A stretch of DNA of 64,000 nt. Source: an uncultured bacterium. Its GTDB lineage: Bacteria; Patescibacteriota; Microgenomatia; UBA1400; UBA12108. Of the stretch, positions 22,318 through 63,857 are shown in pieces. Under the pieces are notes generated by a model. It made no database searches. It saw only the letters and a list, made by a program, of their open reading frames with translations, and was not told where the DNA came from. The stretch's first letter is position 1; each line of letters begins with the position of its first letter. The translations under genes were made by a program, and so were the position numbers. Where the stretch lies: NCBI GenBank assembly GCA_963981525.1, contig CAXCDZ010000001.1, positions 11,217-75,216 of the forward strand, read 5' to 3'.

Positions 22318-22319
22318 AA

Positions 22320-27014: not shown

Positions 27015-27015
27015 A

Positions 27016-28943
<1,928 letters not shown>

Positions 28944-30047: not shown

Positions 30048-30710
30048 TTACCTCCATAGCCAATATGGCAATTTAATTAGTATTCTAACAGCGTCTAGCA
30101 TATTAAAGCCATACTCCTTACCATGATAAACTGTACTGATAGGGATCTCAGTGAAGTTAAGGTTGCCTTTGGCAATCCTGACAGCGATCTCTGTCTCTAC
30201 CTCATAACCTGCTGAATGCCAGATAATTTTGCGATAAGCTGAGCGAGTCATAGCCTTGAAACCAGAGGGGATATCGGCAATGTAATGGCGAAAAAGAAGA
30301 TTGATGAGAATGGAGATACTTTTGTTACCAAGAACTCTCATTAATGGCATCTTGGCATCTAGCTGACGAACACCTAAAACTATGTCCGCTCCTTTATTAA
30401 GTGCTTGCTTGAAATGCTTGAGATCTCCCACCTCATGCTGATCATCACCGTCCATAAAAATGACTGCATCGGCACCCATTTTTTTGAAAGCATATTGGCA
30501 GCCTGTTTTCATTGCAGCCCCCTTGCCTAGGTTTACCATGTGAGAGAGGCACTTGACGCCGCGCTCCCTGACTATCTTCCTGGTGTTGTCCAAGCTACCA
30601 TCGTTGACTACGATGATGTTTTTTTTGCCAACCCCAGCTTCGAGCTTAGTTAGAAACCTCCCAATATACTTGGCCTCGTTATAGGCGGTAATAATGACGG
30701 CAATCTTCAC
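30048..30710 (-). CDS. GT2, DPM1/polyprenol-phosphate glycosyltransferase-like (short, no TM)
   Basis: 'IAVIITAYNEAKYIGRFLTKLEAG...IIVVNDGSLDNT...VIFMDGDDQHEVGDL'. Confidence 0.7.
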   Translation of the reverse strand: MKIAVIITAYNEAKYIGRFLTKLEAGVGKKNIIVVNDGSLDNTRKIVRERGVKCLSHMVNLGKGAAMKTGCQYAFKKMGADAVIFMDGDDQHEVGDLKHFKQALNKGADIVLGVRQLDAKMPLMRVLGNKSISILINLLFRHYIADIPSGFKAMTRSAYRKIIWHSAGYEVETEIAVRIAKGNLNFTEIPISTVYHGKEYGFNMLDAVRILIKLPYWLWR

Positions 30711-35942: not shown

Positions 35943-35950
35943 TATATAGA

Positions 35951-42172: not shown

Positions 42173-43092
42173 ACCTCTAGGATATCACGATCAGAGACAA
42201 TGGAGTTAGCTTGCTGTATGCGGCGCTTGCTGAGCGCTTCTGGCAACTTGAATAGTGCCTTGAGTAGTGGAAGAGGATACCTGTATAGATAGTATGGGAG
42301 ATAAAGGAGATGCTCTAAGAGCATTTTTTTGTCGGAGATGTTTTTCCAGATAAAGAGGAATTGATTGCGCTGCGCTGTGTCCATCACAAACTTCTTGGTG
42401 AAGTTGCTTGCGATCACACTCTTTTGGTGATCGTGCACACAATGACACTCAGGTGCCCAGAGAACTTTCCACCCTCTCTTCCATGCAGAGTAGCCTAGAT
42501 CCGTGTCTTCCCAGTAAAAAGGCTTATAAAGAGTGTTCATGCCACCTAATTGATTCCATTTCTTTTTGTCAAAAGCTGCCTGACCACCTGAGGCCCACAA
42601 GCTAGAATTGACAGAGTGAGAGTTGGCTTTGGTAGGCTTGACCTTGAAGTGATGGAAGAGACCCTTGTTCCATTCCCCTCCCATCCAGGCTTCGCCTGAG
42701 TTAAAACCAACTGAAAAAACATCCTTGTCATCAAAAATATCTAGGCATTTCTCAAAGCAGTCCACGCTGGGTCTGACATCTGTATTAAGGAGCATGATGA
42801 GATCTCCCTTGGCAAGGTTAACCCCTTTGTTAACGTTGGCGGAGAAACCGAGATTCTTGTTGTGGTTGTAGGCTCTGATCTTCCCTCGCTTTTGCTCTGA
42901 CTGCATAAACCCCCATGAGTCGTCGTGTTGACTATTGTCGTCAACTATGACGATCTCGGCTCCTACACGGGCAGCGGCTTTGTAGACATACGGCAGATTT
43001 TGCTTCATCTGAGTCTCGCTGTTCCAACTGGGGATCACGACGCTGACTTTGACTTTGCTTTTGTTTATCTTCATCTGCTTATTGTATACCAA
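42160..43092 (-). CDS. Glycosyltransferase family 2
   Basis: 'VSVVIPSWNSETQMKQNLPYVYKAAARVGAEIVIVDDNSQHDDS' and 'YWEDTDLGY'. Confidence 0.75.
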   Translation of the reverse strand: MVYNKQMKINKSKVKVSVVIPSWNSETQMKQNLPYVYKAAARVGAEIVIVDDNSQHDDSWGFMQSEQKRGKIRAYNHNKNLGFSANVNKGVNLAKGDLIMLLNTDVRPSVDCFEKCLDIFDDKDVFSVGFNSGEAWMGGEWNKGLFHHFKVKPTKANSHSVNSSLWASGGQAAFDKKKWNQLGGMNTLYKPFYWEDTDLGYSAWKRGWKVLWAPECHCVHDHQKSVIASNFTKKFVMDTAQRNQFLFIWKNISDKKMLLEHLLYLPYYLYRYPLPLLKALFKLPEALSKRRIQQANSIVSDRDILEVWAR

Positions 43093-44437
43093 AAATAGTT
43101 ACTCTTAGGCCACCAAAAACTTGCTCTCCAAGCTTGTCAGTACGATCAAGAAGAACTGCTATCTTATCTGACTCGGTTACTACCACGATCACTGGCGCCT
43201 CGTCTTGCATGCTGACTCCATGTGTTTTGAGAAGATAACCAATGCCATCACGCCTTCCTGGAGGTGCTTCTAATCTGAGGTTGATGATATCACCGTATCC
43301 AACTATGTAACTAGCAATATCCTGTTTGACTCGCAAGCTAAATGGTTCTGTAATGATAGCTCGCTCATTGAGATTGCTAACTATGATGAAGGCGATCAGG
43401 AGTGATATAAATATTTTTTTGGGTATAGTCTGCGCGCTCAACCTGGTAACCAAGAGCAATATTAGCGGGATGAACATGGGAAGGAAATAGTATTCGGCAA
43501 AACCTAGATCTCGATAGATGATAAGCATAAAAGGAACAAAGACAAGGATAGATGCACATAGCTTGGTTAGTGAAGATGCTTTTGTTACTAAAAGTGAAGA
43601 AAGTGCAATTACCAAGGATGCGATTCCTAGATAATTAACTCTAGAGCCAACTAGTAACTCTGAGAGAGTGTAGTCAAGTTTTGTAAGAAGAGTGGTTACA
43701 AAAATTAGGAGCTCGGCATGACCTGTACCACCACTAAGAAAGCTTATTAATAAGTGAGTATTGAGAAAACCATGCCTGAGATCAAATAGAAGAAGGGGTG
43801 TAAGGGGGAGAAAGAGGAAAAAGAGGGATAGTAATTTTTGTTTGTTTGTAAGGCTAAAGAAATATTTCGCCCTAGAGAGAACTAATAATCCTGCAACTCC
43901 AACGATAGAGAGATGAATGTGAGTTGAGAATCCCGCCACAAGGAAGAAAAGATATTTGTACCAAGACTTGTGATCTATATTATCCCAAAGAATAATCATG
44001 GTAATCATCCAAAGACTGAGAAGAGATACGTTCCATGGGACATGTGCGAGCTTGATGAGATAGGGAGAGATCATCCAGATTGTGCTACCAAGAATACCCT
44101 GCAATCTACTGCGTTTGGCAAGATATAAGTAGGTGATGAGACCAACGGAAACGTCAAGAATTAGTGATAAGATCGCAAGTCCAAGAGGATTACCGCTACC
44201 AAGAGCTAAGGCTACTGATCCAAGATAATAATAGAGTGGCCCTAGGAAAAAACTACCCTCCCCTCTCACAACTGGACCAATGAGAGTTGGTTTGCCACCT
44301 ATAATGTCAGACATGACTCCGACGTCGCGTGCTTGATCCCACTCAAAAGTGGTAAGACCTGATAGATTGCTGCTGCGTAAATAGATGCCCAGAACAGCGA
44401 GGAGGATTATTGAGAGATACTTAATAATATTTTTCAT
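43079..44437 (-). CDS. GT-C-like polytopic membrane protein (paralog of 55911..57419; D-Q variant of DE loop)
   Basis: 'TFEWDQARDVGVMSDIIGGKPTLIGPV...FLGPLYYYLGS' versus 55911 'FQGDEARDVLIAKRMIDNKTPILLGPE...YLGPLYYYLIT'. Confidence 0.55.
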   Translation of the reverse strand: MKNIIKYLSIILLAVLGIYLRSSNLSGLTTFEWDQARDVGVMSDIIGGKPTLIGPVVRGEGSFFLGPLYYYLGSVALALGSGNPLGLAILSLILDVSVGLITYLYLAKRSRLQGILGSTIWMISPYLIKLAHVPWNVSLLSLWMITMIILWDNIDHKSWYKYLFFLVAGFSTHIHLSIVGVAGLLVLSRAKYFFSLTNKQKLLSLFFLFLPLTPLLLFDLRHGFLNTHLLISFLSGGTGHAELLIFVTTLLTKLDYTLSELLVGSRVNYLGIASLVIALSSLLVTKASSLTKLCASILVFVPFMLIIYRDLGFAEYYFLPMFIPLILLLVTRLSAQTIPKKIFISLLIAFIIVSNLNERAIITEPFSLRVKQDIASYIVGYGDIINLRLEAPPGRRDGIGYLLKTHGVSMQDEAPVIVVVTESDKIAVLLDRTDKLGEQVFGGLRVTIFGIQ

Positions 44438-49534: not shown

Positions 49535-50998
49535 TTATGACTTTTTGAAGGAATTGGCGAGAATATTCTTGACTTCGGCCTTGAGGAATTTGCCATCTAG
49601 TGTGTAGATGAGAATGGAGTAAACAATGATGCCAAGGATGATAGCTAGAATAAGTGTAAATAAGCTCGTGACAAAGAACTTATTAAAGAGAAAAATGGTA
49701 GATGCCATGACAAGTGAAGCCAAGAGAGGAATGCGGATGGAGTTAAGAGTATTGACTTTAACCACCTTGTTCATCTCGCGAATAACGAGCGGGAAGGTGA
49801 GGTAGGTAATAATGAAGATAGTAATTGTAATACCGACAAAACCAACATACTTGATCATCGGCAAACCGATCCCCCATGTCATAAGAGTGTACAAGACCAT
49901 AAGTTTGAGGACTACTTTTGGCTTGCCAAGTGCGTAGAGTGCGTTGGTGTAAGTCGTAGTCACGATGACTGGGAGAGCGGCGGCAAGCAACCACAGGAGT
50001 GCCGGAAGAGCTGGGAGCCATTTGTCACTTTTGTCAGCGTAGAGATACTGAAGAAGGCTAGTGGAGGTGACCATAAGCCCAGTCACGGCTGGAAAATACA
50101 GAATACTCATGAGATGAGTTGACTTCTCTAGCCAGCGACGGAGGCGCGCCTTGTCATGTTGAATGCGAGAGTAGGTGGGGAAGGTGATTCTGGAGACAAT
50201 CGTGATGATCTCCATTGGACGACTACTGATATTCTGTGCCAGGTTAAGAAATCCGACGGCGACTGGACCATAGAAAAAGGCAATCACAGTTGGGGTGATA
50301 TTATCCTTGAGGAGTGCAAGGAGAGAGTTGAGTTGATAAGGTACGCCAAAACTAAGAAGCCCTTTGATCGACTTTTTGTCAAACCCCCACCCCATTTTCC
50401 AAGGAGCAATAATATTAAGAGAGACTGCCCCGAGAAATGTTCTTGCTAATACTGCAACTGCTAGACTCCAGACACCATATCCCTTGAACGCCATAAAGAC
50501 TGCTATTCCATTGTAGGCAACAGTCTCTAGGATCTCTGGGATAATCAGAATATCAAAGCGAAGTTTGCGTTCAAGAAGAATCGAGGGGATAGTTTTGAAT
50601 GAAGTAAGGAAGATGCTAAAGCTGAGCGCTCTAATTAGCCACATTCCCTGTGAACCCAAGTCGTAGATGTTGGAAACATACGGCGAGACTACCCAGGCAA
50701 TAAGCATGAGGAAAGTTACCAATAATTGCTGAATGGTGAAGGTGGTTCTGATGTCCTTGAGATCAAGCTCTTCCTTTTTTTGGATCAAGGCAGCGCCAAG
50801 ACCAACATCAGAGAAAAAAGCGAGGAAAGTAAAAACGATAAAAGTAACAATCGCAAAGATTCCAAAAGTTTCTTGGGGAAGGGTTCGCGCGAGAAAAATG
50901 ACTCCAAAAGTATCAATTACCTTGAGAATGATACGTCTAAAAGAAAGTGTGAACACCCCCTTAAAAGCACGTTGTTTGAGATTATCTAGATTTGACAT
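49535..50998 (-). CDS. Wzx-like oligo/polysaccharide flippase (MOP superfamily)
   Basis: 'LKQRAFKGVFTLSFRRIILKVIDTFGVIFLARTLPQETFGIFAIVTF' N-terminus. ~14 TM. Confidence 0.7.
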   Translation of the reverse strand: MSNLDNLKQRAFKGVFTLSFRRIILKVIDTFGVIFLARTLPQETFGIFAIVTFIVFTFLAFFSDVGLGAALIQKKEELDLKDIRTTFTIQQLLVTFLMLIAWVVSPYVSNIYDLGSQGMWLIRALSFSIFLTSFKTIPSILLERKLRFDILIIPEILETVAYNGIAVFMAFKGYGVWSLAVAVLARTFLGAVSLNIIAPWKMGWGFDKKSIKGLLSFGVPYQLNSLLALLKDNITPTVIAFFYGPVAVGFLNLAQNISSRPMEIITIVSRITFPTYSRIQHDKARLRRWLEKSTHLMSILYFPAVTGLMVTSTSLLQYLYADKSDKWLPALPALLWLLAAALPVIVTTTYTNALYALGKPKVVLKLMVLYTLMTWGIGLPMIKYVGFVGITITIFIITYLTFPLVIREMNKVVKVNTLNSIRIPLLASLVMASTIFLFNKFFVTSLFTLILAIILGIIVYSILIYTLDGKFLKAEVKNILANSFKKS

Positions 50999-52514
50999 AT
51001 AGGTATCCTACTACAAAGAGAGTAATAAGCGAGATGAATGAAGCAATGCTCTCTAGAAGAGTGTGTGACTGAGTAATAACTATCTCGTGAGAATCGTCAA
51101 GAAGATCAAACTCAATAAGCCCATCTTGACTTGGACGTAAGGCTAGTGGCATACCATTATCAGTAGCTACCCAAGTTGGGTAGTAGGTACGAGGGAGAAC
51201 AAAGGTGCCGGGACCTTCTTGGCTTGTTGGGAGAGATGGAGCTTGAGACTCGGGAAATGAGGACACCCAGACAGGCAAGAATTCTGGGACTTTGGCTGCT
51301 AACTCATTTTGCAAAAAAGTTGTGTTGGTAAATTCCTGATCACTGTATGGTTTTTGAGCTTGAGGTGAGAAATACTTGAGATTAAAAAACAGTAATAACG
51401 AGATTGTAAGGATGGTGTAGAGGGTGCGCAACTGAGTGGACTTGAATAGTGTGACTGAGAGACCCGCCAAGACCGAGACTGCAAGAGAGATGAGAGCCAA
51501 AAATCGCCAAGGAAACTGAATGACCTGCAATACAAAAATATTATCCCAAAGGATTCTCGAGAATGAGGTAGTCATGATGACAGAGAACAAGAGAGTCACA
51601 CCGGCAAATAGAGCGAGAGTTTGAGCTTTTTTGTGACGGAGACCCACAATGACACCGAGGCCGGCGAGTATTAGGTGAAGTTTGCCAATCTTAAAAGAAA
51701 TCCCATCCTCCAAACCAGGGGCAGATCCTCCAAACCCCCAGACAGAATCCCATAATTGAGAGGGAGAGACGAAGTGGAGTGAGTAGTTGGTGAGGCGAGA
51801 GAGAGCGTCGACCTGGACGAAGTCTCTTTCAAAAATCAGCGGTAAGAGATAAAAACTTGCCAGCAACAATGAGAGCATGGCTGTGATTACTACCCTCCTG
51901 AGATGCTTGCCTTGATATAGCAAAGTCCAGACCATGAGAAAAGGAGCAACGAGAAGTGGAATCAGGTTGTGAGAGAGAAGAAATAATGCCGTGATTACAC
52001 TAGTTACTCCGACTCGTCGAGGGTTGAGAGAGCGCCATGCCCAGAACAGCCATGGCAATAACATGATCGCAAAAAGCTCAGCATAAGAACCTCTGACAAA
52101 TAGTCCGATTGCACGATACGGCACTAACAAAAAACTAACAGCTGAAAGAAGACCAACCAGATGACCATACCTCTTCATCAAGTAGTACATGCCAATCCCT
52201 CCCGACAAACTGATGAGGATCAGGCTCAGTTTGAGAGCGGTGAGGAGAGTTGGGGTAAAAATGCCAATAAAAGCAACTAAGTAATAGAAGGCAGGAGCAT
52301 AAAAATGAAAGAGAGGATAACCATAACCAAGGTTGGCTGTGTTGGCCCAGACTGCAGGAATCTGACCATCCATCAGAGTCTCTCTGAGTAGATAGACTCT
52401 TCCCAAGTGAGTTGGATCATGCACATCGAAGAAGCCAAACTTGAGTAATGGAAGGCAGGTTAGAAGGAGAACTCCTAGGATAATTAACCAGATGAGAGTA
52501 GATTTTTTTGGCAT
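50982..52514 (-). CDS. Polytopic membrane protein, GT-C-like (paralog of 38087..39697)
   Basis: 'FFDVHDPTHLGRVYLLRETLMDGQIPAVWANTANLGYGYPLFHFYAPAFYYL'. Confidence 0.5.
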   Translation of the reverse strand: MPKKSTLIWLIILGVLLLTCLPLLKFGFFDVHDPTHLGRVYLLRETLMDGQIPAVWANTANLGYGYPLFHFYAPAFYYLVAFIGIFTPTLLTALKLSLILISLSGGIGMYYLMKRYGHLVGLLSAVSFLLVPYRAIGLFVRGSYAELFAIMLLPWLFWAWRSLNPRRVGVTSVITALFLLSHNLIPLLVAPFLMVWTLLYQGKHLRRVVITAMLSLLLASFYLLPLIFERDFVQVDALSRLTNYSLHFVSPSQLWDSVWGFGGSAPGLEDGISFKIGKLHLILAGLGVIVGLRHKKAQTLALFAGVTLLFSVIMTTSFSRILWDNIFVLQVIQFPWRFLALISLAVSVLAGLSVTLFKSTQLRTLYTILTISLLLFFNLKYFSPQAQKPYSDQEFTNTTFLQNELAAKVPEFLPVWVSSFPESQAPSLPTSQEGPGTFVLPRTYYPTWVATDNGMPLALRPSQDGLIEFDLLDDSHEIVITQSHTLLESIASFISLITLFVVGYLYVKSR

Positions 52515-54023: not shown

Positions 54024-55148
54024 TTAACTTCTTCTATGTTTGGCAAAGATTTTTGAGAAAAATAGATAGATTAGGGGTGCGGCAAAAGTGAGTAGGAAAT
54101 TGAACTCCCTGGTGTAAGTCCAGAATCCAGTTGAAACATAGGGGAAATAGTAATAGAGAGCAAGAATCGTCATAAGAGAGGAAAAGATAATGGTAATGCG
54201 TGAATTAGTGAGAAGTGAGGCTGTGAAGAACCAGATCAGATACCATGGCTGGAAACGATCAATCCAGATTAGGAGAGGAAGATATAGTAGCCAGGCTGAG
54301 AAAAATATAATCTGATCTTTGCTCAGGTACCTCTGGAGAAAATATGCAGGAACCATAACTATGGCCATCAGTTTGATCGAAATTCCATAGAAAAGCGAGA
54401 TAAATGATTGCTTGTACTTGTTCTTGAGAAACAAAAGGATTGCCAGGAGATAAAAAGCCATCATGATCCCATCATTGTGACTGTTAACGAGCGTCTCGAA
54501 CAAGATCAGAGGATTGAGTGCGTAGGTGAGCTGAAGGAGGGGAATGTTTTTGACTGATTTTAGCTTGTGTGCGATCTCCCCTATCAGCTTGATACTCCAG
54601 AGATAGAAGCCATATGGAATCAGCTTGGCGATAAGGAGAGAGAGCGTGAACTTGCCAAGACCAAGAAGGTAAACTGGAGAATAGAGAAGGGTATGACCAT
54701 ATCCGTAAGCTGCGGGAGTGTGGACCCAGCGCATAAATCGAAGCCATGGATCTCCCTCAAAATGGAGAGGCGGGTATATATGAGGGTTGGCATGATAGTG
54801 CCAAATGATCTTGGAATGGAACATGTAGTTATAGACGTCATAAGAGAACATGGGATAGCAAAGAGTTAAGATGAGCGAAAGAATAATAATCTTAGGCCAA
54901 GGGAACTTGGTGAGTTTTTTGCCAGACTTAAGAGTCCACAAATAGAGGAGGGCAAAACCGAGGGTAAATAATAAATAGATATTGCCAGATAGAGGACGAT
55001 CAAAATAAACCAAGTGCTGCAACTTGGAGATGAGTGAGAGAATGCTGGGGTTACTGGTTAGAGTGAGATTGAGATCAACAAAACCATATGAATATGCAAA
55101 AAAACCTAGTGTTAACAAGAGATAACTAACAAGAATTACAAAGCTCAT
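54024..55148 (-). CDS. Uncharacterised polytopic membrane protein (possible DUF2029/GT87-like GT-C)
   Basis: ~10 TM. 'YDVYNYMFHSKIIWHYHANPHIYPP'. Immediately downstream of a DPM1-like GT2. Confidence 0.4.
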   Translation of the reverse strand: MSFVILVSYLLLTLGFFAYSYGFVDLNLTLTSNPSILSLISKLQHLVYFDRPLSGNIYLLFTLGFALLYLWTLKSGKKLTKFPWPKIIILSLILTLCYPMFSYDVYNYMFHSKIIWHYHANPHIYPPLHFEGDPWLRFMRWVHTPAAYGYGHTLLYSPVYLLGLGKFTLSLLIAKLIPYGFYLWSIKLIGEIAHKLKSVKNIPLLQLTYALNPLILFETLVNSHNDGIMMAFYLLAILLFLKNKYKQSFISLFYGISIKLMAIVMVPAYFLQRYLSKDQIIFFSAWLLYLPLLIWIDRFQPWYLIWFFTASLLTNSRITIIFSSLMTILALYYYFPYVSTGFWTYTREFNFLLTFAAPLIYLFFSKIFAKHRRS

Positions 55149-55909
55149 AAATCGTATTTATGGAGAGTGTCGTTAACCCTGACGCGCATAATCTCAAAAA
55201 GCATCTCCAGAGATTCTTTGACAAAATTGCGAGACTTGCCGAGAGTGGTATCCTCGTTTTTCCAGATTACCCGCACTTCTTTGATACTTGCTCCGAGTTT
55301 TTTGGCGATGTGCAACAACTCAACGTCGTAGGCGGTGACTTTCCAGCCAGAAGCATTGTTAGCTCTCCCAAAAAGACGCATGTGTGAGAATATATCTCTT
55401 GCAAGACTAGTCTTGATTAACTTGAAGCCACACTGGGTATCTTTGATCTCGGGTAGCAATATCAAGCGACGAACAAGAAGGAAGACTATTGAGGCAAGCT
55501 GGCGAATAGGAGTGGTGTCAGTACGCTTGACTCCCCGAGAACCTATGACAACATCGTACCCTTCTGTAGTATGTGGAAGTAACTTGCTGAGCTCTTTGAT
55601 AGGAGTCGACTGGTCCATGTCAGTGAGGAGTACGTGCTCCCCCTTGGCCTTATTGATACCAGATCTCAGGGCATATGGCTTGCCTGCATGTTGGTTGTAC
55701 AGCAACTTGATCTCAGGGTTATTGGCAATGAAATCTTTGATTGCAAGAAGACTAGAGTCAGTTGAGCCGTCGTCAGAGATGATGACTTCGAATGTAAATT
55801 TTTGTTTTTTGAGATAATCCAAGATGTCTTGGAGTACTCCACGCTTGATGTTCTCTATTTCGTTGTAGTTGGGGATGAGGATGGTAACCTTTGGGGATTT
55901 GGTTTTCAT
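55145..55909 (-). CDS. GT2, DPM1/polyprenol-phosphate glycosyltransferase-like
   Basis: 'VTILIPNYNEIENIKRGVLQDILDYLKK...EVIISDDGSTDSS...YALRSGINKAKGEHVLLTDMDQSTP...VVIGSRGVKR'. Confidence 0.75.
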   Translation of the reverse strand: MKTKSPKVTILIPNYNEIENIKRGVLQDILDYLKKQKFTFEVIISDDGSTDSSLLAIKDFIANNPEIKLLYNQHAGKPYALRSGINKAKGEHVLLTDMDQSTPIKELSKLLPHTTEGYDVVIGSRGVKRTDTTPIRQLASIVFLLVRRLILLPEIKDTQCGFKLIKTSLARDIFSHMRLFGRANNASGWKVTAYDVELLHIAKKLGASIKEVRVIWKNEDTTLGKSRNFVKESLEMLFEIMRVRVNDTLHKYDL

Positions 55910-55910
55910 A

Positions 55911-57419
55911 TTATTCTTTCTCGATATTTATTGTTCCCACATATGTATCATAGGAGATTCTTTCGTTTTGTACCATAACCCTTTTTTGACTAAACTCATT
56001 TATCTGAGGGTGTCCCAGATATTCAGCAATTGAGGGATGGGTGGGACCAGTCAGGAAAAGTAGGGTGGTAGTCTCCTCGTCGCTCGAGCAGGGACCCCTC
56101 TCACAGATGACATATACAAGATCCTGGAGATCATTTTTGGGAGGGTTATCAGAGAGGGAGAGGTAGTACTGGATTGTTGTTATTGATGAACCTTGAGCAT
56201 TGACTGTGTTGTAGGGACGATTGTTGGCTTGAGAAAGTATATAGTCTGAGATCTCAACTGCCCTCTCTACCTGGATAGATGATTTACTGCGCAGATTGTA
56301 GATCAGAGTAGGATAGCTCCAGATAAGTAATCCCGCGAGGAAGATGACGCTAATCGCTCTAACCACTGGTCTGGCTCTAGTAGCAAGCGCTCCAAACATA
56401 AGTGCAATAGTGGGAAAAAGATGTGAGACATAGTGTACGTTTATGTTTTCTCGAAGAAAAGAAATAGTGATTATTGTGCCTATCAAGAAAAACCAAAGCT
56501 GCTTGAGATCTTTGGAATGCTTGTTTCGTCGCTTGAACAAGGCAGGAAAGAGGAGAAGGAGAAAGCTCGCTGAGTTTACTAAGCTAGATGGGACTTCTTT
56601 GAGCGCGATTGATTGGCTTCCAACAATACCTTTGGATACCATCACAATATTATTCTTGACCCTTTCAAGATAACCTGGCCCCACACTGTTTTCTGCTTTT
56701 TTGGAGACTAGATACTTAAAGAAAGCTTGAGTATTCACAAAATCATGTCGAAGCTCAAAAGCCCAGAATGGAGCTGTGACAATAACAAACCCAGATACGA
56801 TAAGTAAAATGCGTTTGATTAATTCTTTTTTTGGAATTATTTTTATATCTTGCTTGAGTAGAGCGAGAGCAGTCAAGACTACCATGATGAGAGCGACATA
56901 ATGGAGCTGAAAGAGAGCGCCGGCATAGAGTCCCAAAATAAACCACTTCCACCGCCCAACATAATCAAAAACAAAGAGAAGAAGGACTGAGAAAAAAGGC
57001 ACTAAATTGGGATTCCAGGAAGATCTAGAGTAATGGAGCATGACTGGGGACAACGCGTACATAAACCCTGCAACTAAGCCACCCCAAAACCCGAATTTCT
57101 TTTTTCCCCAAGAAAAAATAAGAAAGGTGGTTGCAACTCCGAACAGACCTACCATAATTGCTGGACCAGCTGGATGCATCTGAGAGATGAGAAGAGCAGG
57201 TGTAATAAGGTAGTAATAGAGAGGGCCCAAGTACATATTGCCCACAGAAGTCTCTGGACCCAGGAGGATTGGGGTCTTGTTGTCTATCATGCGTTTGGCG
57301 ATCAAGACATCCCTGGCCTCATCACCCTGAAAGATAAATGTCTGGTCTATCCTGTATAGATGTGTAAAAGAAGAAACTAGGAGAAGAATGATCGTCAGAA
57401 TGGTAAAAAGTTTTTTCAT
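55911..57419 (-). CDS. GT-C fold glycosyltransferase, ArnT/PMT_2 family
   Basis: 'HLYRIDQTFIFQGDEARDVLIAKRMIDNKTPILLGPETSVGNMYLGPLYYY'. Confidence 0.7.
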   Translation of the reverse strand: MKKLFTILTIILLLVSSFTHLYRIDQTFIFQGDEARDVLIAKRMIDNKTPILLGPETSVGNMYLGPLYYYLITPALLISQMHPAGPAIMVGLFGVATTFLIFSWGKKKFGFWGGLVAGFMYALSPVMLHYSRSSWNPNLVPFFSVLLLFVFDYVGRWKWFILGLYAGALFQLHYVALIMVVLTALALLKQDIKIIPKKELIKRILLIVSGFVIVTAPFWAFELRHDFVNTQAFFKYLVSKKAENSVGPGYLERVKNNIVMVSKGIVGSQSIALKEVPSSLVNSASFLLLLFPALFKRRNKHSKDLKQLWFFLIGTIITISFLRENINVHYVSHLFPTIALMFGALATRARPVVRAISVIFLAGLLIWSYPTLIYNLRSKSSIQVERAVEISDYILSQANNRPYNTVNAQGSSITTIQYYLSLSDNPPKNDLQDLVYVICERGPCSSDEETTTLLFLTGPTHPSIAEYLGHPQINEFSQKRVMVQNERISYDTYVGTINIEKE

Positions 57420-58123
57420 GAGTTGAGTCTTTTCCAGAGAACAAAACTCTCCCTAAGGGCACGAAGAATTACTCTGGGATTACTGCCAGTCTGGATGCCC
57501 ATCTTACGCTCATAATGGTTGATTGGTGTCTGATGGATGGTGGCCCCATTTCTAATAAGTTTCGTCATGAGCTCAGTGATGGTGATAGCGCTGCTGGTCT
57601 CAAGAGTGATGTTGTCTAGCAGGTTCTTGGGGATTAGTTTGTATGCACAGTCCACATCCTTGAGGCGGAGACCAAACAGAAGCAGGTTCCAGTATTTGAG
57701 TAAAACTTGAGCAAGGATAAGGCGCAATAAAGGATCTCTTCTCTTGTGGCGATAGCCAATAACTACGTCTGCTTGATCGCGCAGTGAGATGAAGTGGGGG
57801 AGTTCGTCAAACTGAAATTGTCCGTCAGAGTCAGTAAAAAAGACCCAGTCATACTGAGCTTCTTTGAGGCCGGTCTTAATAGAAGCTCCGTAGCCAAGAT
57901 TCTTGGGATGGGAAACCAATTTCACGAATGAGTGCTTCTTGGCATACTCTGCAACCAGTAGAGAGGTGTCGTCGCTGGAGCCATCATCAACTACAATGAT
58001 CTCGTATTTGTCTGATACTTTTTGGATATATTTGGCGGCGTCGGCGAGAGTTTTTTTGATATTCCCGGCCTCGTTGTAGGCAGGAAAGAAGACTGTGAGT
58101 TCTTTTAGCTTATCTCTAATCAT
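57416..58123 (-). CDS. GT2, DPM1/polyprenol-phosphate glycosyltransferase-like
   Basis: 'LTVFFPAYNEAGNIKKTLADAAKYIQKVSDKYEIIVVDDGSSDDT...GYGASIKTGLKEAQYDWVFFTDSDGQF...VVIGYRHKRRD'. Confidence 0.8.
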   Translation of the reverse strand: MIRDKLKELTVFFPAYNEAGNIKKTLADAAKYIQKVSDKYEIIVVDDGSSDDTSLLVAEYAKKHSFVKLVSHPKNLGYGASIKTGLKEAQYDWVFFTDSDGQFQFDELPHFISLRDQADVVIGYRHKRRDPLLRLILAQVLLKYWNLLLFGLRLKDVDCAYKLIPKNLLDNITLETSSAITITELMTKLIRNGATIHQTPINHYERKMGIQTGSNPRVILRALRESFVLWKRLNS

Positions 58124-58156: not shown

Positions 58157-59827
58157 TTATTGTTTTCTCATGTAGAGACTGATTGTTGTGGAGTCATAGA
58201 TGAGCTCAAACTGCACCGGAGAAGAGAGTGCGCGAACTGCATCTTCTGTGCCCCATTCTGTTTTGTAGATGTAGTAATAATCGGCGGGCACTGAAGTTAT
58301 ACTACCACCTTTGTACTTGTTGACTACATCTAGGCGAGGTTGATAACTAGAGTTGAGAACCATCAGTTGATCTGTGTCTAGATAATAAGTGTATTTCTCG
58401 GCAAGGGCAGGAATAACTGCGTTTCTGTGAACAGGGTTATTAACATAAACTATTCCCGGAGGAGCTTCCTTGAGCACACTGAGAGCTTCTAGCTCTTCGT
58501 TACCAATAATTTCTTGATCTGCCGTAAGAAAGCGGAGTTGCTCGAGATTGTTGGGAATCGTAAAGATAATAATCAAAAAAATGATTAACCAACTGCCTCG
58601 CCATTTTGAGTGAGCTAGATCAGACAACCACTCTACCAAAAGTATCCCTGAAAGCCAGGCTCCGTAATAAAGAAACTGCATGGTGTTGTACCAGCCGCCA
58701 TTTTGCACAAACAAGATCGGTGCCAGAACGGTCAATAAAATTGTAAATGAGATTGCTTGATAAAATGGAGACAATTTCTTCTTGAAGATTGAGGAGGCCA
58801 CATATATCCCCGCCAGAATGCGAGTCCCAAAATTGATAAGGAGAAATAGTCCGAGAGAGTATGCTTCGATTGCCCATAATCTGGGGGAGAAGCTAGTCGC
58901 ATTCTCATAGAGATGGTACCTGGCGAGCGTCAAGCTATGGTTGTAAAAGAGGAGGGAGTCGTCTATCAATAAGTGAGTCAGTGCAAGTGGTGCCCAACTA
59001 AATGGAATGCTAGAACCTGAGGAAACTCCATAAAAAACGAGCAGACCTAGAAAACTACCAGTGATTATCAATAATGCTTGAGTAAGAAAATCTCTCAATG
59101 CAAGCCTTTTCCCAACAAACTCTAGCAATTTGAAAATAGAAGTAAATAGGAGAGCTACAACTCCGCCATAGAACTTGAGACCAAAAAGAACGAAAAACAG
59201 AATTCCGAGGATGATGGATTGTCTTTTTTGATCCTTGCGGTTAATAAGCATGATGATCCAAAGGATGACTGAGAGCGAGAAGGCAAACTGAAGATTGAGA
59301 AACATAGTGGCAGGCTGAATGGAGGTTACAACTGGGAAGCCACGCAGAGACGAGTAGAAAAAAGTGCGATCCTGATAGAGGGTTGCGAGATAACTAAAGG
59401 AACTACCAAAATATAAGAAAAAGGCAAGAAGATTGGCTTTGAGAAGGTTGGATGTTCTAGTTTTAATAAAACGAAGAACGCTCCATATATATAAGAGTGC
59501 AGCAATAATTGGAAGAAGTTGGAAAAAGCTAAAGAAAGGTGAGATTCCTAGCCTGCTCAAAAGATGAAGGATATAATCCAAGAGAAAGTTGTAACTGGAG
59601 AGTGATTCGCCCGCCATAAGAGGATTCTGGAGCGGCCAACTCCCAAAACCAAGTTTTGCGAGACTGATATGCCAGAGAGAGTCATGCAGATGCCACTGAC
59701 CAATCTGAAGATTGCAGATCCCCGTTGTGCAATGCATAAAACCATTTGGAAGAATAAATGATAGAGAGAGAAACGCAAAGAAAAACGACTGAATAACTAA
59801 CCACTTATTGAGTCTAAGTTTCTTCAT
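58157..59827 (-). CDS. Uncharacterised polytopic membrane protein, 'C..C / HxHD-WH' family (paralog of 61025..62680)
   Basis: 'HCTTGICNLQIGQWHLHDSLWHISLA...GESLSSYNFLLDYIL', 'QNGGWYNTMQFLYYG'. ORF track start 60028 trimmed to 'MKKLRLNKWL' (ATG 59825-59827) so that it does not run through the divergent gene. Confidence 0.5.
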   Translation of the reverse strand: MKKLRLNKWLVIQSFFFAFLSLSFILPNGFMHCTTGICNLQIGQWHLHDSLWHISLAKLGFGSWPLQNPLMAGESLSSYNFLLDYILHLLSRLGISPFFSFFQLLPIIAALLYIWSVLRFIKTRTSNLLKANLLAFFLYFGSSFSYLATLYQDRTFFYSSLRGFPVVTSIQPATMFLNLQFAFSLSVILWIIMLINRKDQKRQSIILGILFFVLFGLKFYGGVVALLFTSIFKLLEFVGKRLALRDFLTQALLIITGSFLGLLVFYGVSSGSSIPFSWAPLALTHLLIDDSLLFYNHSLTLARYHLYENATSFSPRLWAIEAYSLGLFLLINFGTRILAGIYVASSIFKKKLSPFYQAISFTILLTVLAPILFVQNGGWYNTMQFLYYGAWLSGILLVEWLSDLAHSKWRGSWLIIFLIIIFTIPNNLEQLRFLTADQEIIGNEELEALSVLKEAPPGIVYVNNPVHRNAVIPALAEKYTYYLDTDQLMVLNSSYQPRLDVVNKYKGGSITSVPADYYYIYKTEWGTEDAVRALSSPVQFELIYDSTTISLYMRKQ

Positions 59828-59858
59828 AACGATATTAGTATAGCAGTCGATCGAGCAT

Positions 59859-61028
59859 ATGCAGTATGATATGGGTATGAGGAAAAATATTCTTGTAGCA
59901 ATTGCAATTGCTATCGTATCTCTAGTAGTGTTCTGGTCACCATTTCTTCTCAAGGCTGACAAACTCTGGGGAATTGAGTTAAAAGACCACTCGATGCAGA
60001 CGATTGTCGCTAATTTTGATGGAATCAACTTCTTGATAGTGGCAAAATCTCTCTACAATCAAGGAATCATTGAGACTGATTATCCGAGTATTTTGTCAGG
60101 GAGAGTGAACCTCTATTTCTCTGCCCATTACCCAGGATTCCCACTCATGATTAGAGCTTTTGATATCTTTCTCTCTGGACCAAATGCCCTTCTGGCTGCA
60201 ATCGCACTGAGCAATATCCTCCTTTCTGTTGCGCTCTATTACCTATATCAAAAGATTACCCCGAAAGGTAAGGGAGCGTTGTATCTGACAGCTTTGGCGT
60301 TATTTATCCCAGCTAGGATGCTCTCGATGCGGACAGTGGGTTCCAACGAAAGCCTATTCATCTTCTTTGTTCTAACTTCACTCTTGTTGTCATCTAACAA
60401 AAAATATTGGTTGTCGGGAATCGCTGGAGCTGGAGCCGTACTAACCAGAAGCCCAGGGATCTTACTTATGTTTGCTTATGCTGTTCCCCTATTAGCTAAT
60501 CTTAAGAAAAAAAATAAAATTGATTGGAAAAGCTACCTCCCATATTTATTGATCCCTCTTGCCCTAGTATCTCTATGGATTTTCTACGGACTCAGGTTCG
60601 GAGATTTCTTGGCTTACTTTAAAGTTGGTGGAAATATCAACCTCTATTTCCCCCCATTTATGACATTTGGCTCTAACTTTGACTGGATCTCTGGGATGTG
60701 GCTAGAGGATATTATCTATACATACCTATTTTACGGCGTGGGAATACTGCTTTTTTTTCAGCACCAGATAAAGAAGAATAAAAGCCTAGCAGTACTTGGA
60801 TATTTTGCGCTTATATACTACACGATGACCTTGTTTATAGTGCATCGCGATATTGCGCGCTACTCTCTACCAATTGCTCCTATTGTAATTGCGGGGTATG
60901 CTCCATTTATTCAGTCCAAGTATCTTAAGTACGCCTTAGTTGCTCTGATCGTCCCAATCTATCTTTATGCCTGGAACTTCATACTCAATAATGTGCAACC
61001 GGTTATGGACTGGTCAGCTTTCTTATGA
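59859..61028 (+). CDS. PIG-V/Gpi18-like (GT76-like) mannosyltransferase-family membrane protein (paralog of 35951..37075)
   Basis: 'AKSLYNQGIIETDYPSILSGRVNLYFSAHYPGFPLMIRAF' versus 'IARYGYQDTGTQAFFPVYPLMIRAL'. Multi-TM. Confidence 0.5.
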   Translation: MQYDMGMRKNILVAIAIAIVSLVVFWSPFLLKADKLWGIELKDHSMQTIVANFDGINFLIVAKSLYNQGIIETDYPSILSGRVNLYFSAHYPGFPLMIRAFDIFLSGPNALLAAIALSNILLSVALYYLYQKITPKGKGALYLTALALFIPARMLSMRTVGSNESLFIFFVLTSLLLSSNKKYWLSGIAGAGAVLTRSPGILLMFAYAVPLLANLKKKNKIDWKSYLPYLLIPLALVSLWIFYGLRFGDFLAYFKVGGNINLYFPPFMTFGSNFDWISGMWLEDIIYTYLFYGVGILLFFQHQIKKNKSLAVLGYFALIYYTMTLFIVHRDIARYSLPIAPIVIAGYAPFIQSKYLKYALVALIVPIYLYAWNFILNNVQPVMDWSAFL

Positions 61029-62680
61029 AGAGCAAAGTCCTGACAACTATATTAGTTGTAGCAGGACTGGTTGCGAGCTTGCTAGTCATATTCCCAAGTG
61101 GGAGAGAGTATTGTTATCAGGACCAGTGCGGAGTAATGTTCTGGGGAGCTCATGAGCATGATGCTATATGGCATCTAGCCGTATCTAACACCCTATTCTC
61201 TAATTTCCCATTCGAGATGCCAAATATGTCAGAGAGTATGATGAGTGGATACAATTATCTCTTAGATATTGTGATTGCGACTACCTCATTTGTTACCCGT
61301 ATCCCTGCCTCAAATTTATATTTCCAGATCATCCCGATATTATGGTTTGGTCTGTTTGTATGGTTAAGTAGCAAATTTGCCAAGCAATATCATAAGAGCA
61401 AATACTATCTACCCGCATTGCTATTTTTTAGTTTTTTTGGGAGCTCACTCGGCTATTTGATCACTCTCAAGAATGCTGGCTCTTTCTGGGGCTCAAGCTC
61501 TATCCTCTCTATGCAACCATTGCAGAACCTGCTTAACTTACAGTTTTCCCTATCCCTTTTACCATTCCTGGCAATCTTGATCGGACTGGTGAATAAGAGG
61601 AGGAGCGTCAAGGACTATGTTCTTTATGGAATATATGCATTCATAGCAATAGGACTAAAGCTCTATACGGGGGTTGGAATAGTGATGCTACTCATTGTGG
61701 ACTGGGTAATAAGAGCGATCCGCAGGAAAGACCCAATACTACTATCAACTCCTAAGCTGCTGATTACCGGACTATTCTCGATACTTGCTGTGATAATCTT
61801 TTATGCGCCATTTTCGCAATCAACTGGAGCTCCATTCTTACTTGATCCCATGGCTACAGTTAACCCCATCGTAGAGGACTCTAGCCTACTATATCTACCC
61901 AAGACTGCTGAGAGACTCTACTCTCTTAGAGGAGTCAAACTAGTAGTAATTGAGCTTTTTGTGCTCGGACTATTCCTAGTATTTAATTTTGGCTCCAGAA
62001 TATTTGCAGCGTTTGGGCTAGCAGGTAAACAAGAACCAAATGAGATCAGGGAAATAGTTGGCTTAACTGCTATTATCATGCTGATATTGTCTATACTCCT
62101 AACCCAGAGGGGGGTATGGTGGAACACCGTCCAGTTCTTGTATGTCTCCCTTTTCCTTTTTAATATTCTGGCAGCAGAGGGTCTGGTGAAAATATTTCAA
62201 TTACCAAAATTTGGAATAGTGCTAGGTGTCACCATCGTTCTTATTACTATCCCCACAAACATTGATGTTATGAGGTCGTTTTCTAACTTCCCAGGAAATA
62301 GCTATATCTCTAGTAATGAACTCTCGGCGCTAGAGTTTTTGAAAAAGCAAGATCCTGGGATAGTACTAACAGGCGGACTCCAATTACGCGGCTCAAAGAT
62401 AGCTTTACCCCCGCTTGAGGCAACCTACGACACAACATATGTCTCAGCCTACTCTCACAAACAAAGCTATCTCTCAGATCTTATCCAACTCCGACTAACA
62501 AATATTGATTATCATGAGAGACTAGAGATGGTAAGTAGATATGATTGCGAAGTCCTTGAAGATGTTAAGTATTTGTATGAGGTAAATGAAAGTCTATACG
62601 TATCAAATTACCAAGATTGTGGGAGAGGATTGGAAACAATCTATAGCAACGATACTGCATCAGTCTATCTTGTGAGATAA
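61025..62680 (+). CDS. Uncharacterised polytopic membrane protein, 'C..C / HxHD-WH' family (paralog of 58157..59827)
   Basis: 'YCYQDQCGVMFWGAHEHDAIWHLAVS...SESMMSGYNYLLDIVI', 'QRGVWWNTVQFLYVS'. Start overlaps the upstream stop (ATGA). Confidence 0.5.
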   Translation: MKSKVLTTILVVAGLVASLLVIFPSGREYCYQDQCGVMFWGAHEHDAIWHLAVSNTLFSNFPFEMPNMSESMMSGYNYLLDIVIATTSFVTRIPASNLYFQIIPILWFGLFVWLSSKFAKQYHKSKYYLPALLFFSFFGSSLGYLITLKNAGSFWGSSSILSMQPLQNLLNLQFSLSLLPFLAILIGLVNKRRSVKDYVLYGIYAFIAIGLKLYTGVGIVMLLIVDWVIRAIRRKDPILLSTPKLLITGLFSILAVIIFYAPFSQSTGAPFLLDPMATVNPIVEDSSLLYLPKTAERLYSLRGVKLVVIELFVLGLFLVFNFGSRIFAAFGLAGKQEPNEIREIVGLTAIIMLILSILLTQRGVWWNTVQFLYVSLFLFNILAAEGLVKIFQLPKFGIVLGVTIVLITIPTNIDVMRSFSNFPGNSYISSNELSALEFLKKQDPGIVLTGGLQLRGSKIALPPLEATYDTTYVSAYSHKQSYLSDLIQLRLTNIDYHERLEMVSRYDCEVLEDVKYLYEVNESLYVSNYQDCGRGLETIYSNDTASVYLVR

Positions 62681-62681
62681 A

Positions 62682-63857
62682 CTATTTTTTCTTCCAGATA
62701 ATCTTAGAGTAAGCAAAGAAGTTCCAGAACATGCCGACCAGAATACCGGTGACGGCAAACATCGTTCCGGTGTCAACTGCGAACTTGATAATCGGGAGAG
62801 TAAAGAGATTGTAGAAGCCGATATATCTCTCACCTAGAATAGCAATCACTTGCTGGATCAAGATCGAACCACCTGAGGCGAGGTTGAAGGCCACGAATTT
62901 TGCTGGTACTTGCTTAGCCTTGAGCTTGCGATCAGCGAAGGTCCAGAGATTGCTAAAAATAAAGTTACTGATAATGGCAGTCTCGATAGCGAGGAAGAAG
63001 GCCACCTGGAATGGCATTAGAGAGCGATAGATCTGCAAGAAGGCGATCTGGATGAGCGCACCGATACCTCCTGTGACTGCAAACTTAAAGATGCGATGGT
63101 TAAGTATTTTTTCGAGTCTGTTTTTCATGATGTACCTTAATGTATTAAATATATATTCTGAACCTAATTTGGAGTGACCGTGGGTACGATCAATAAAAAG
63201 AAATGGTACCTCGCCAATAGTGGCACCTACTTCGAGAGATTTTACTAAGAAGCCGATCTGCCAAGTGTACCCATCGAAGGCGCTGTGTGAGAGCGAGGGG
63301 AGAATGTGCTTAACGAGACTTGTTCTAATTGCGCGGTAGCCTGTTGTCCAGTCAGTGACCTTAAAGTTGAGCATTGTGGTACGAATAAATAGATTGCCAG
63401 CAAGTGACAGGAACTTGCGGTGTGGGGGCCAGTCCGCAGGTATTGCTCCACCTGGGATGTAGCGAGAACCAAGGACTAGGTCAGAACCAGACTCGATTAG
63501 TGCTAGCATTGGGACGGCCTTTGCCGGATTATGAGAGAGGTCTGCATCCATCTGGATGATAATCTCTGCACCCAACTTGTCGATTGCGTAGCGCATTCCT
63601 TTTTTATAGGCATGGCCGAGACCAGCTTTTTTGCGATTCTTGAGGAGCTTGATATAAGTCCTAGTCTTTGCGAGCTCTGTGATTGCCTTGCCAGTGCCGT
63701 CAGGACTCTGATCATCTACGAAAAGGATCTGGAGCTGATAATTGGTGAGGGATTTTTTGACTTTTGCTATAGCCTTTACCAAGGTTTTAATATTTCCCAC
63801 TTCGTTATAGGTGGGAATGATGATGACTACTTTTTGCTTAGATTTGTTTTTTTCCAT
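62682..63857 (-). CDS. GT2 polyprenol-phosphate glycosyltransferase (DPM1/ArnC/GtrB-like) fused to a C-terminal GtrA-like membrane domain
   Basis: '[25 protein letters not shown]...[12 protein letters not shown]...[16 protein letters not shown]...[13 protein letters not shown]', then the GtrA-like '[20 protein letters not shown]...' 4-TM tail. Confidence 0.8.

Follow-up and report, generated by a model that had tools for sequence, protein, structure and literature searches.

The locus raises the question of what two related membrane proteins of no named family do in a gene cluster devoted to glycosylation. Their host is an uncultured CPR (Patescibacteria) bacterium. Members of this group are tiny, mostly uncultured episymbionts, whose surfaces mediate attachment to the host; to our knowledge, the glycans of their envelopes are almost wholly uncharacterized. 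Our analysis of the surrounding 64,000 nucleotides (the whole stretch of DNA studied, referred to as the window) leads to the prediction that the two proteins (A and C) and the product of the gene between them (B) are GT-C-fold glycosyltransferases that would decorate the cell surface with sugars delivered on a lipid carrier. The core of the locus and one related gene are as follows.

58157..59827, minus strand: paralog A, an ORF of 556 aa, unnamed GT-C family; heads a long minus-strand glycosylation operon
59828..59858, no strand: divergent A/B intergenic spacer of 31 bp, read from the sequence
59859..61028, plus strand: gene B, 389 aa, small GT-C-fold membrane protein; alternative start at 59871
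61025..62680, plus strand: paralog C, 551 aa, unnamed GT-C family; 11 TM helices and a C-terminal extracytoplasmic alpha/beta domain
35951..37075, minus strand: located in another part of the cluster and paralogous to gene B (BLASTP and profile)

The original prediction described A and C as paralogs in inverted orientation that share a colinear series of motifs, and this was confirmed. The two ORFs lie at the positions listed above, and their products display 30% identity and 49% positives (BLASTP, E 1e-60). Since this similarity extends over essentially the whole length of the proteins, the shared motifs do not reflect a chance match. Regular-expression searches recovered every motif in both proteins, i.e. 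C-x4-C (at residue 33 of A and 30 of C) and H-x-HD-x2-WH (at residues 46 and 43, respectively), as well as YN-x-LLD, LNLQF, LK-x-Y, G-x-RI and W(Y/W)NT-x-QF. A was also matched by the family profile (E 2e-160). A and C constitute separate orthologous groups, and the positional orthologs of A found in 10 other genomes are closer to A than to C; the duplication appears to be ancient.

The minus-strand ORF of A can be extended up to a TTG codon at 60028, but the ATG at 59827 is preferred as the start, because it agrees with the N-termini of the homologs and avoids an overlap with gene B. Between the start codons of A and B lie 31 bp, as predicted, or 43 bp if B starts at its second ATG (59871), as in some database gene calls. 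A scan of positions 59500..60200 revealed no match to a sigma-70-like promoter or a terminator in the divergent region.

The original prediction assigned the A/C family to no named Pfam, in agreement with the searches. Neither protein has a Pfam or NCBIfam match, and comparison of 40 aligned homologs with Pfam at E<=1 yielded only noise (AzlD, DUF3290, Glyco_transf_7N in 4/40). When all PDB sequences were searched using phmmer and the family profile, zero matches were obtained at E<=10. The family is nevertheless large, comprising 1,634 clusters at 50% identity, and its named matches are Patescibacteria. A search of the literature for GT-C enzymes in combination with CPR or Patescibacteria turned up no relevant publication.

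A confident fold assignment came from the predicted structure of C (pLDDT 93.1, pTM 0.93). In line with the suggested membership of a GT-C clade, Foldseek matched the model with a probability of 1.00 to AglB, STT3, PglB, DPY19, AftD, ArnT and AftA, at TM-scores of about 0.5 and an identity of 13% or less; catalytic GT-Cs scored well above pseudo-enzymes. Secondary structure (DSSP) and the positive-inside rule gave a topology with the N-terminus inside, 11 TM helices and the C-terminus outside. The density of Lys and Arg is 0.18-0.48 in the inner loops and 0.02-0.10 in the outer loops, with the exception of the single-residue K212 turn, and two covarying Cys pairs are both located in predicted outside regions. 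Enzymes of class GT-CA consist of a conserved N-terminal seven-TM module followed by a variable C-terminal module, and their catalytic base is defined as lying within the first LL1 helix (PMC13503287). C shows a similar overall fold and the same arrangement: TM1-7 are contained within residues 2-260 and are followed by TM8-11 and a 130-residue C-terminal domain (helices counted from secondary structure). In the model, external loop 1 (residues 23-94) is composed of a hairpin (E27-31/E34-39) and two helices (41-44/46-59 and 79-91), with the conserved acidic residue Asp46, for which a catalytic role is predicted, at the N-terminal end of the first. The sites considered below are located as follows.

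59669..59692, minus strand: HLHDSLWH of A, residues 46-53 by translation; aligns with the invariant D/W/H columns, Asp49 being the putative catalytic base
61112..61129, plus strand: C30-x4-C35 of C, beta-hairpin in external loop 1; probable disulfide
61151..61174, plus strand: HEHDAIWH of C, residues 43-50; contains the invariant Asp46, with which the first loop 1 helix begins
61658..61666, plus strand: K212-L-Y214 of C, outer turn between TM5 and TM6 (placed by DSSP and the positive-inside rule)
62117..62137, plus strand: WWNTVQF of C, residues 365-371, outer end of TM10; preceded by the invariant Q361
62285..62677, plus strand: residues 421-551 of C, forming its extracytoplasmic alpha/beta domain at the C-terminus; carries the second covarying Cys pair, C508/C532

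The family alignment revealed very strong conservation of the outward-facing residues, namely (i) in loop 1, D46 (195/195), W49 (193/195), H50 (185/195), the likewise invariant Y76, and Asp81 of the second helix (176/196), (ii) in the TM5/TM6 turn, K212 (209/209) and Y214 (206/209), and (iii) near TM10, Q361 (210/210), N367 (208/209), Q370 (209/209) and F371 (207/209). A retains the equivalents of all of the invariant residues D46, Y76, K212, Q361, N367 and Q370. From the topology, D46, K212, Q361 and N367 would be gathered round one pocket, in which Asp46 of C (Asp49 of A) is the putative catalytic base and Lys212 and Tyr214 are candidate donor-phosphate binders. Several observations count against the GT-C reading: no curated GT-C family of Pfam or NCBIfam is matched significantly, the structural identity and TM-scores given above are low, HD-x2-WH is no classical DxD, and the invariant R325, on the predicted cytoplasmic side, has no role in the mechanism proposed below.

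The Cys pair and the His/Asp cluster had been proposed to form one catalytic loop. Only the latter part of this proposal can be retained, as the invariant Asp46 occupies the catalytic position of GT-CA enzymes. Both Cys of C-x4-C are present in 131 sequences and neither in 51, while a single one was found in 0. The two residues thus always occur together or are both missing, and for this reason C-x4-C is probably a disulfide, and its interpretation as a catalytic or metal-binding site was rejected.

Gene B was confirmed as a paralog of 35951..37075 (BLASTP, E 8e-9; E 2e-69 with the profile of alignment A2, which includes 35951..37075). Its proposed PIG-V/GT76-like identity was not upheld, since neither B nor 29 homologs matched Pfam Mannosyl_trans2 (PIG-V/Gpi18, GT76, PF04188) at E<=1; weak GT87 matches were obtained for 6 of the 29 homologs. 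Structure comparison revealed a GT-C fold, and the library results contained no PIG-V structure. Nor is B a shortened version of an A/C-type protein, as profile-profile comparison of B with the A/C family gave no signal (1.5% probability). The stop codon of B overlaps the start codon of C by 4 nt (ATGA, 61025..61028), and B, the smallest of the three GT-Cs, is probably coupled to C in translation and responsible for an adjacent step. The JGI name of B, 'Gpi18-like', is an annotation alone.

The genes flanking A-B-C, together with the flippase and PTPS_related genes of the window, are listed below.

62682..63857, minus strand: fusion of a GT2 and a GtrA/DPMS TM domain, 391 aa, convergent with C; Pfam Glycos_transf_2 1e-25, GtrA_DPMS_TM 9e-14
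57416..58123, minus strand: small GT2, 235 aa, similar to the ArnC catalytic domain, directly downstream of A; Pfam GT2 7e-28
55911..57419, minus strand: GT-C candidate, 502 aa; weak PMT_2 match (7e-5, below cutoff), position conserved in the module
55145..55909, minus strand: GT2, 254 aa, part of the conserved module; Pfam GT2 2e-24
54024..55148, minus strand: MptA/B-like GT-C, 374 aa; ortholog has PF26314 MptA_B_family, NCBIfam TIGR03459 weak
49535..50998 and 6943..8229: Wzx genes
38087..39697 and 50982..52514: genes of PTPS_related proteins

The GT2-GtrA fusion protein matches the Pyrococcus dolichol-P-mannose synthase 5mlz over residues 8-346 (E 4e-41), which makes it a candidate polyprenyl-phosphate sugar synthase, and the small GT2 matches ArnC structures over residues 6-217 (E 4e-15). 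At least 10 further species-representative genomes share the seven-gene module (GT2, GT-C, GT2 and A; B and C; DPMS-like GT2-GtrA), and the DPMS-like GT2-GtrA gene is also conserved beside C-type genes. Sets of a GT-A enzyme, a flippase and a GT-C are an established route to the glycosylation of bacterial surface polymers (PMC8035078, PMC11127046). At this locus all three components are encoded together, i.e. GT2 synthase candidates, a GtrA/Wzx-type flippase and GT-Cs, and their functional coupling is predicted. Another GT-C was detected within 3 kb in 42 of the 45 fully flanked loci of the family. The family domain also occurs in natural fusions with an MptA/B-like GT-C, a Wzx flippase or a soluble domain. 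In the first case (P0079), the GT-C is fused N-terminally to the family domain and matches 54024..55148 (E 3e-28). The A/C family itself shows no profile-profile signal with MptA/B-like GT-Cs (3% probability). The soluble domain, N-terminal in the fused forms, is weakly similar to DUF3863 (1e-3) and 3lm3 (E 0.026), and no copy of it was found in the window.

The explanation that we favor, with a probability of roughly 0.6, is that A and C belong to an unnamed family of GT-C-fold glycosyltransferases of class GT-CA, acting in a multi-component system of extracytoplasmic glycosylation. The cytoplasmic GT2s (the DPMS-like GT2-GtrA protein of 62682..63857 and the ArnC-like protein of 57416..58123) would load a sugar onto polyprenyl phosphate, and a GtrA-type domain or a Wzx-type flippase would flip the lipid-linked sugar across the membrane. 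A and C would then transfer it, on the outer face of the membrane, to an acceptor at the cell surface, which may be a protein, a glycopolymer or a lipid-linked glycan. In this reaction the invariant Asp of HD-x2-WH in external loop 1 would serve as the catalytic base, Lys212/Tyr214 and the Q361/WWNT-QF segment may hold the phosphate and sugar of the donor, and the C-terminal extracytoplasmic domain may contribute to acceptor binding. A and C probably differ in linkage or acceptor, since they have been kept as separate orthologous groups. The adjacent DPMS-like and ArnC-like GT2 genes, together with the Wzx genes and fusions, would fit a polyprenyl-(di)phosphate-linked sugar as the donor. That it is a monophosphate remains an assumption, because a recognisable GT2 of the polyprenyl-P-sugar-synthase type lies within 3 kb of only 13 of the 45 fully flanked loci, and a Wzx flippase of 18.

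In an unlikely alternative, A and C act as enzymes of the OST, polymerase or ligase type and transfer a Wzx-flipped polyprenyl-diphosphate oligosaccharide en bloc, either onto a protein or onto a glycan that is growing or anchored. In CPR bacteria they would then play the part of PglB/AglB, or correspond in function to Wzy/WaaL. As compared with STT3/AglB/PglB (GT66), C displays 10-12% identity, a TM-score of about 0.49 and 11 instead of 13 predicted TM helices. The A/C family lacks the DxD/ExD metal triad and the WWDYG motif (WWNT-QF precedes TM10 in the alignment), and has no sequence or profile match to these enzymes in the PDB. The polymerase/ligase-like affinity put forward in the original prediction was rejected, as no structural similarity was found to WaaL, RodA/FtsW and related chains of the Wzy/WaaL/SEDS type. 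It is quite improbable that the family represents the missing en-bloc transferase of CPR bacteria, built on a GT-C scaffold separately from STT3/PglB; this would be a second independent invention of OST- or Wzy-like chemistry on that scaffold. Wzx-flipped polyprenyl-diphosphate oligosaccharides would then be polymerised, or ligated to an acceptor in the form of a protein or the cell wall, with A and C serving two different glycans or acceptors.

It also seems rather doubtful that A and C polymerize extracytoplasmic glycans in a processive or branching manner, similar to the mycobacterial EmbA-C, AftA-D and MptA/B. Together with about 20 other polytopic proteins of the cluster, they would in this case build a large envelope polysaccharide with polyprenyl-P-sugars as the sole donors. 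Such a role would be a special case of the favored explanation, with a specific acceptor and pathway logic, and our results fit processive and single-addition activity alike. Arabinan- or mannan-type chemistry is not known in these organisms, and relative to AftA (GT85) and AftB/AftD the identity is only 9-10%, with no shared motifs detected and an unrelated phylogenetic group. Finally, a role as non-catalytic GT-C-fold scaffolds, substrate-binding subunits or transporters, as in the case of PIG-U/GAB1 of the GPI transamidase, is highly improbable, given the strict invariance of outward-facing polar residues (D46, Y76, K212, Q361, N367, Q370) in about 200 divergent sequences, the Asp at the canonical catalytic position and the much lower scores of the pseudo-enzymes.

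With the fold assignment, a family of about 1,600 clusters with no representative in Pfam, NCBIfam or the PDB gains a confident fold and a candidate active site (Asp46, Lys212, Gln361, Asn367 and Gln370), while the conserved module and the gene fusions tie it to flippases and other GT-Cs. Hundreds of CPR proteins now labelled 'hypothetical' would be better annotated, and the result could provide the seed for a new CAZy or Pfam family.

Among known systems, CsbB-GtcA-YfhO is responsible for the GlcNAc-ylation of teichoic acid, and YfhO/PTPS_related proteins are, as judged by sequence profiles, the nearest relatives of the A/C family among those tested (hhalign with the PTPS_related/YfhO-like GT-Cs of the window: 87% probability, E 3.6e-6, 366 columns). 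In this alignment an 'HD' just after TM1 corresponds to HD-x2-WH, and a 'QFPWRF' segment to WWNT-QF. Both groups consist of polytopic proteins whose C-terminal part is extracytoplasmic, and in both a gene for a GT2 polyprenyl-P-sugar synthase is adjacent (PMC8035078). In contrast, the A/C family carries the loop 1 Cys-hairpin and the K-F-Y and WWNT-QF signatures, and its members are shorter (about 550 aa, compared with about 620-835 residues for the Pfam models). No match to YfhO or PTPS_related (PF09586/PF10131) was found at E<=1 in A, C or the 40 aligned members, and the two bona fide PTPS_related proteins of the window clearly constitute a separate family. PMT/PMT_2/ArnT enzymes (GT39, GT83) differ in having DE in place of HD-x2-WH in loop 1, and the A/C family has no Pfam PMT or PMT_2 match and no MIR domain. 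Within an enzyme type that is well known, A and C would represent a new family, and not a new kind of biochemical system.

Three genes make up the locus considered here (residues are numbered as in C):

58157..59827, minus strand: A, membrane protein of an unnamed family (the A/C family), 556 aa from ATG
59859..61028, plus strand: B, smaller protein with the fold of polytopic glycosyltransferases (GT-C), 389 aa
61025..62680, plus strand: C, membrane protein of the A/C family, 551 aa

BLASTP aligned A and C end to end (30% identity, 49% positives, E 1e-60), and both carry, in the same order, the motifs C-x4-C, H-x-HD-x2-WH, YN-x-LLD, LNLQF, LK-x-Y, G-x-RI and W(Y/W)NT-x-QF. The original prediction of true paralogs with colinear motifs, inverted around B, was thus confirmed. 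The proposed paralogy of B and the minus-strand ORF 35951..37075 was also recovered, by BLASTP (E 8e-9) and by a profile whose source alignment, A2, itself contains 35951..37075 (E 2e-69). The divergent start codons of A and B, predicted to lie about 31 bp apart, are separated by exactly this distance. A longer, TTG-initiated reading of A reaches 60028, but would overlap B and disagrees with the N-termini of homologs; B is annotated in some databases from a second ATG, four codons downstream. The stop of B and the start of C overlap within ATGA. If each is taken from the earliest TTG at which it could start, the minus-strand ORFs 34164..36251 and 35951..37246 overlap by ~300 nt; the B paralog most likely starts at 37075, and the start codons around 34164..37246 need curation. 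The upstream 695-aa polytopic ORF (34164..36251 region) is related to PMT_2 paralogs (E 2e-15 to 30707..32347) and has no Pfam match.

C was modelled with AlphaFold2 from 40 sequences, with very high confidence (mean pLDDT 93.1, pTM 0.93). In this model, DSSP assigned 11 long helices and, after them, an alpha/beta domain. The known GT-C proteins of the fold comparison are listed below.

Known GT-C proteins in the fold comparison, with the two values recorded for each
Pmt4: 19.4; 327
AftA: 19.1; 424
ALG12: 18.2; 336
STT3B: 17.8; 407
AglB: 17.4; 407
Pmt2: 15.8; 322
ArnT: 15.2; 416
ALG9: 14.6; 355
AftB: 14.5; 373
PglB: 14.5; 412
AftD: 14.0; 403

We are highly confident that the A/C proteins possess the GT-C fold. 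Across the alignment, the density of K+R was 0.18-0.48 in loops assigned as cytoplasmic versus 0.02-0.10 in outer ones (except for a single-residue turn containing the invariant K212), which supports an N-in, C-out topology. Class GT-CA is defined by a conserved seven-TM module, a variable module and two helices in the first luminal loop, with the catalytic base on the first helix (PMC13503287); the A/C family shows each of these structural features, Asp46 being the candidate base.

Conservation was counted in 210 diverse sequences of the family. This analysis revealed the (nearly) invariant residues Asp46 (195/195), Tyr76 (196/196), Lys212 (209/209), Gln361 (210/210), Asn367 (208/209), Gln370 (209/209), Trp49 (193/195) and Arg325 (203/210), all of which are retained in A and, with the exception of Arg325, are predicted to face outwards. 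The likely catalytic base is Asp46, with which the first of the two helices of external loop 1 begins; Lys212/Tyr214 and Gln361/Asn367/Gln370 are likely ligands of the donor or acceptor; the conserved residues may share a single pocket. Cys30 and Cys35, on a beta-hairpin of the same loop, occur together in 131 sequences, are both missing from 51, and never occur singly. Cys508/Cys532 of the C-terminal domain, a pair that A lacks, are both present in 110 sequences and both absent from 84, with one alone in a single case. Since the cysteines of each pair come and go together, they bear the signature of structural, extracytoplasmic disulfides, which corroborates the topology. The metal- or substrate-binding catalytic role originally suggested for the C-x4-C pair and the His/Asp cluster is opposed, as regards the cysteines, by this both-or-neither pattern.

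Neither A nor C matched any Pfam or NCBIfam model, and 40 aligned homologs gave nothing beyond noise in Pfam, even at E<=1; originally, too, the family had been left without a named Pfam. No PDB chain was found at E<=10 with a single sequence or the family profile. A word-indexed search returned 67 relatives, all 'hypothetical', the few named ones being Woesebacteria and Roizmanbacteria. When 1.84 billion cluster representatives were searched exhaustively with a profile, 1,634 proteins were found at E<=1e-3 (907 at E<=1e-30). The 358 loci in GTDB species representatives include records titled Roizman-, Woese-, Shapiro- and Liptonbacteria, Paceibacterota, Microgenomates and 'Patescibacteria group'. 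Many others are titled 'uncultured Gammaproteobacteria/Pseudomonadales'; these are species-representative MAGs (TPA_asm, binchicken/SRP isolates; loci L011, L013-L016, L018, L019, L022-L024 and others). Their taxonomic labels look wrong, because several of these loci share a seven-gene module of the exact Woesebacteria type. The family is sizeable and apparently restricted to Patescibacteria (CPR).

Local profile-profile comparisons with alignments of other GT-C types from the window and related loci gave the highest probability (87%; E 3.6e-6, 366 columns) for PTPS_related/YfhO-like proteins, followed by PMT_2 (73%) and the type of 55911..57419 (57%; E 1e-4, only 81 columns). There was no signal for the MptA/B-like (3.1%) or B family (1.5%) profiles. 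In the PTPS_related alignment, HD-x2-WH is matched to an 'HD' motif just past TM1 and WWNT-QF to a 'QFPWRF' segment, so the A/C family is remotely related to the YfhO-type GT-Cs without being one of them. B had been described as PIG-V/GT76-like: its GT-C character stands, but neither B nor 29 homologs matched PIG-V (PF04188) in Pfam. Weak GT87 matches were found in six of these homologs, some B homologs are named 'Gpi18-like mannosyltransferase' by JGI, and B itself gave a sub-threshold NCBIfam match to AZOBR_p60025 ('cell surface glycopolymer formation').

The gene that converges on C encodes a GT2 fused to a GtrA/DPMS TM domain; residues 8-346 of this protein match Pyrococcus dolichol-P-mannose synthase (5mlz, E 4e-41). 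Downstream of A, beyond a gap of 33 nt, lies a GT2 similar to the catalytic domain of ArnC (E 4e-15); a GT-C, a second GT2 and an MptA/B-like GT-C come next, in adjacent or 4-nt-overlapping frames. Ten or more further species-representative genomes contain the seven-gene module GT2–GT-C–GT2–A(-), B(+)–C(+), GT2-GtrA(-), and in each of them the minus-strand copy is closer to A and the plus-strand copy to C; the duplication thus predates these species, with both copies retained. In Roizmanbacteria and other lineages the duplicates stand in tandem or in other arrangements, with B missing, and two or three copies occur in 29 of 86 loci. Within 45 loci with full 3-kb flanks, another GT-C was found nearby in 42, a Wzx flippase in 18 and a GT2 of the window's types in 13. 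One protein (P0079) is a natural fusion with an MptA/B-like GT-C. In 22 of the 210 sequences examined (P0121, P0133, P0179, P0188 and 18 others) the family domain is fused to an N-terminal soluble domain of ~450-590 aa with a signal sequence and the motifs NPVRG, FLEVTP, KSVGAWW and ADQFSTD, only weakly similar to DUF3863 (1e-3) and PDB 3lm3 (E 0.026). P0188 has an additional N-terminal Wzx flippase. The soluble domain is a separate gene beside the C-type copy in locus L014 (7613..9493) and has no copy within the window.

We consider it reasonably probable (approximately 0.6) that A and C represent a family of GT-CA glycosyltransferases not named before, that both are active, and that they take part in multi-component transmembrane glycosylation of the type reviewed in PMC8035078 and PMC11127046. 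In such a pathway, polyprenyl-P-sugars would come from GT2 enzymes and be flipped by a protein of the GtrA or Wzx type, and A and C would transfer the sugar on the outer side of the membrane, with Asp46 acting as the base and the C-terminal domain likely helping in acceptor binding. Since A and C are kept as two orthogroups and B is coupled to C, we suggest that the three proteins act one after the other, or as alternatives, on the same surface glycan. The earlier proposal of a novel GT-C or polymerase/ligase-like clade was borne out as to the fold. A rival reading makes A and C en-bloc transferases of the oligosaccharyltransferase (OST), polymerase or ligase kind, which would draw on diphosphate-linked donors; in our view it is unlikely. 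In its favour are a ranking in Foldseek that is OST-like, a C-terminal domain similar to that of AglB, and the fusion to and proximity of Wzx; it is weakened by the absence of WWDYG and of a metal triad. That en-bloc transfer of the OST or Wzy type arose independently on the GT-C scaffold seems rather improbable, as does a mycobacterial-style processive or branching polymerase, which would be a special case of the glycosyltransferase reading. A non-catalytic GT-C-fold subunit is very improbable.

The window is nearly one continuous glycan-assembly cluster, almost wholly on the minus strand, in which 28 of 53 ORFs have at least 4 predicted TM segments. According to Pfam it encodes (i) nine PMT_2-type GT-Cs (two below the model cutoff), two PTPS_related, one DUF2142 and one MptA/B-like protein, (ii) two Wzx flippases, (iii) fourteen GT2 (one sub-threshold) and four GT4 genes, and (iv) two methyltransferases; two B-type proteins, the A/C pair and several ORFs without a Pfam match also belong to the polytopic set. 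This density of GT-C paralogs is unusual. The paralogous ORFs 15057..16040 and 27987..28943 look, from their N-termini, like NAD-dependent sugar epimerases/dehydratases. A two-gene module is duplicated (20980..23894 and 25695..28008), its polytopic genes (20980..22317 and 25695..27083) being paralogs (E 2e-22), as are 22320..23894, with a TPR repeat, and 27016..28008 (E 4e-25); none of the four has a Pfam family, and they could include the Wzy- or ligase-type enzymes of the cluster. Between 24001 and 26000, across ORFs 23911..24759 and 24763..25716, G+C falls to 0.33 (0.40-0.47 elsewhere) and GC and AT skew are reversed; this may be a recently acquired insert. Polytopic ORFs 5612..6943, 17039..18586, 43079..44437 and 10823..11953 (4-9 predicted TM) had no Pfam match at E<=0.001 or 0.01. 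The third is paralogous to 55911..57419, the GT-C candidate (E 7e-18), and the first, directly downstream of a Wzx flippase, is a candidate polymerase.

The A/C family is of value chiefly for annotation and as an entry point for experiments on the glycobiology of CPR envelopes. The fold, chemistry and pathway logic of such enzymes are already known; what is new, judged against the Pfam and NCBIfam copies used here, neither of which has a model, is the sequence family itself, with its signature HD-x2-WH, K-F-Y, Q-x3-WWNT-x-QF and two optional disulfides.
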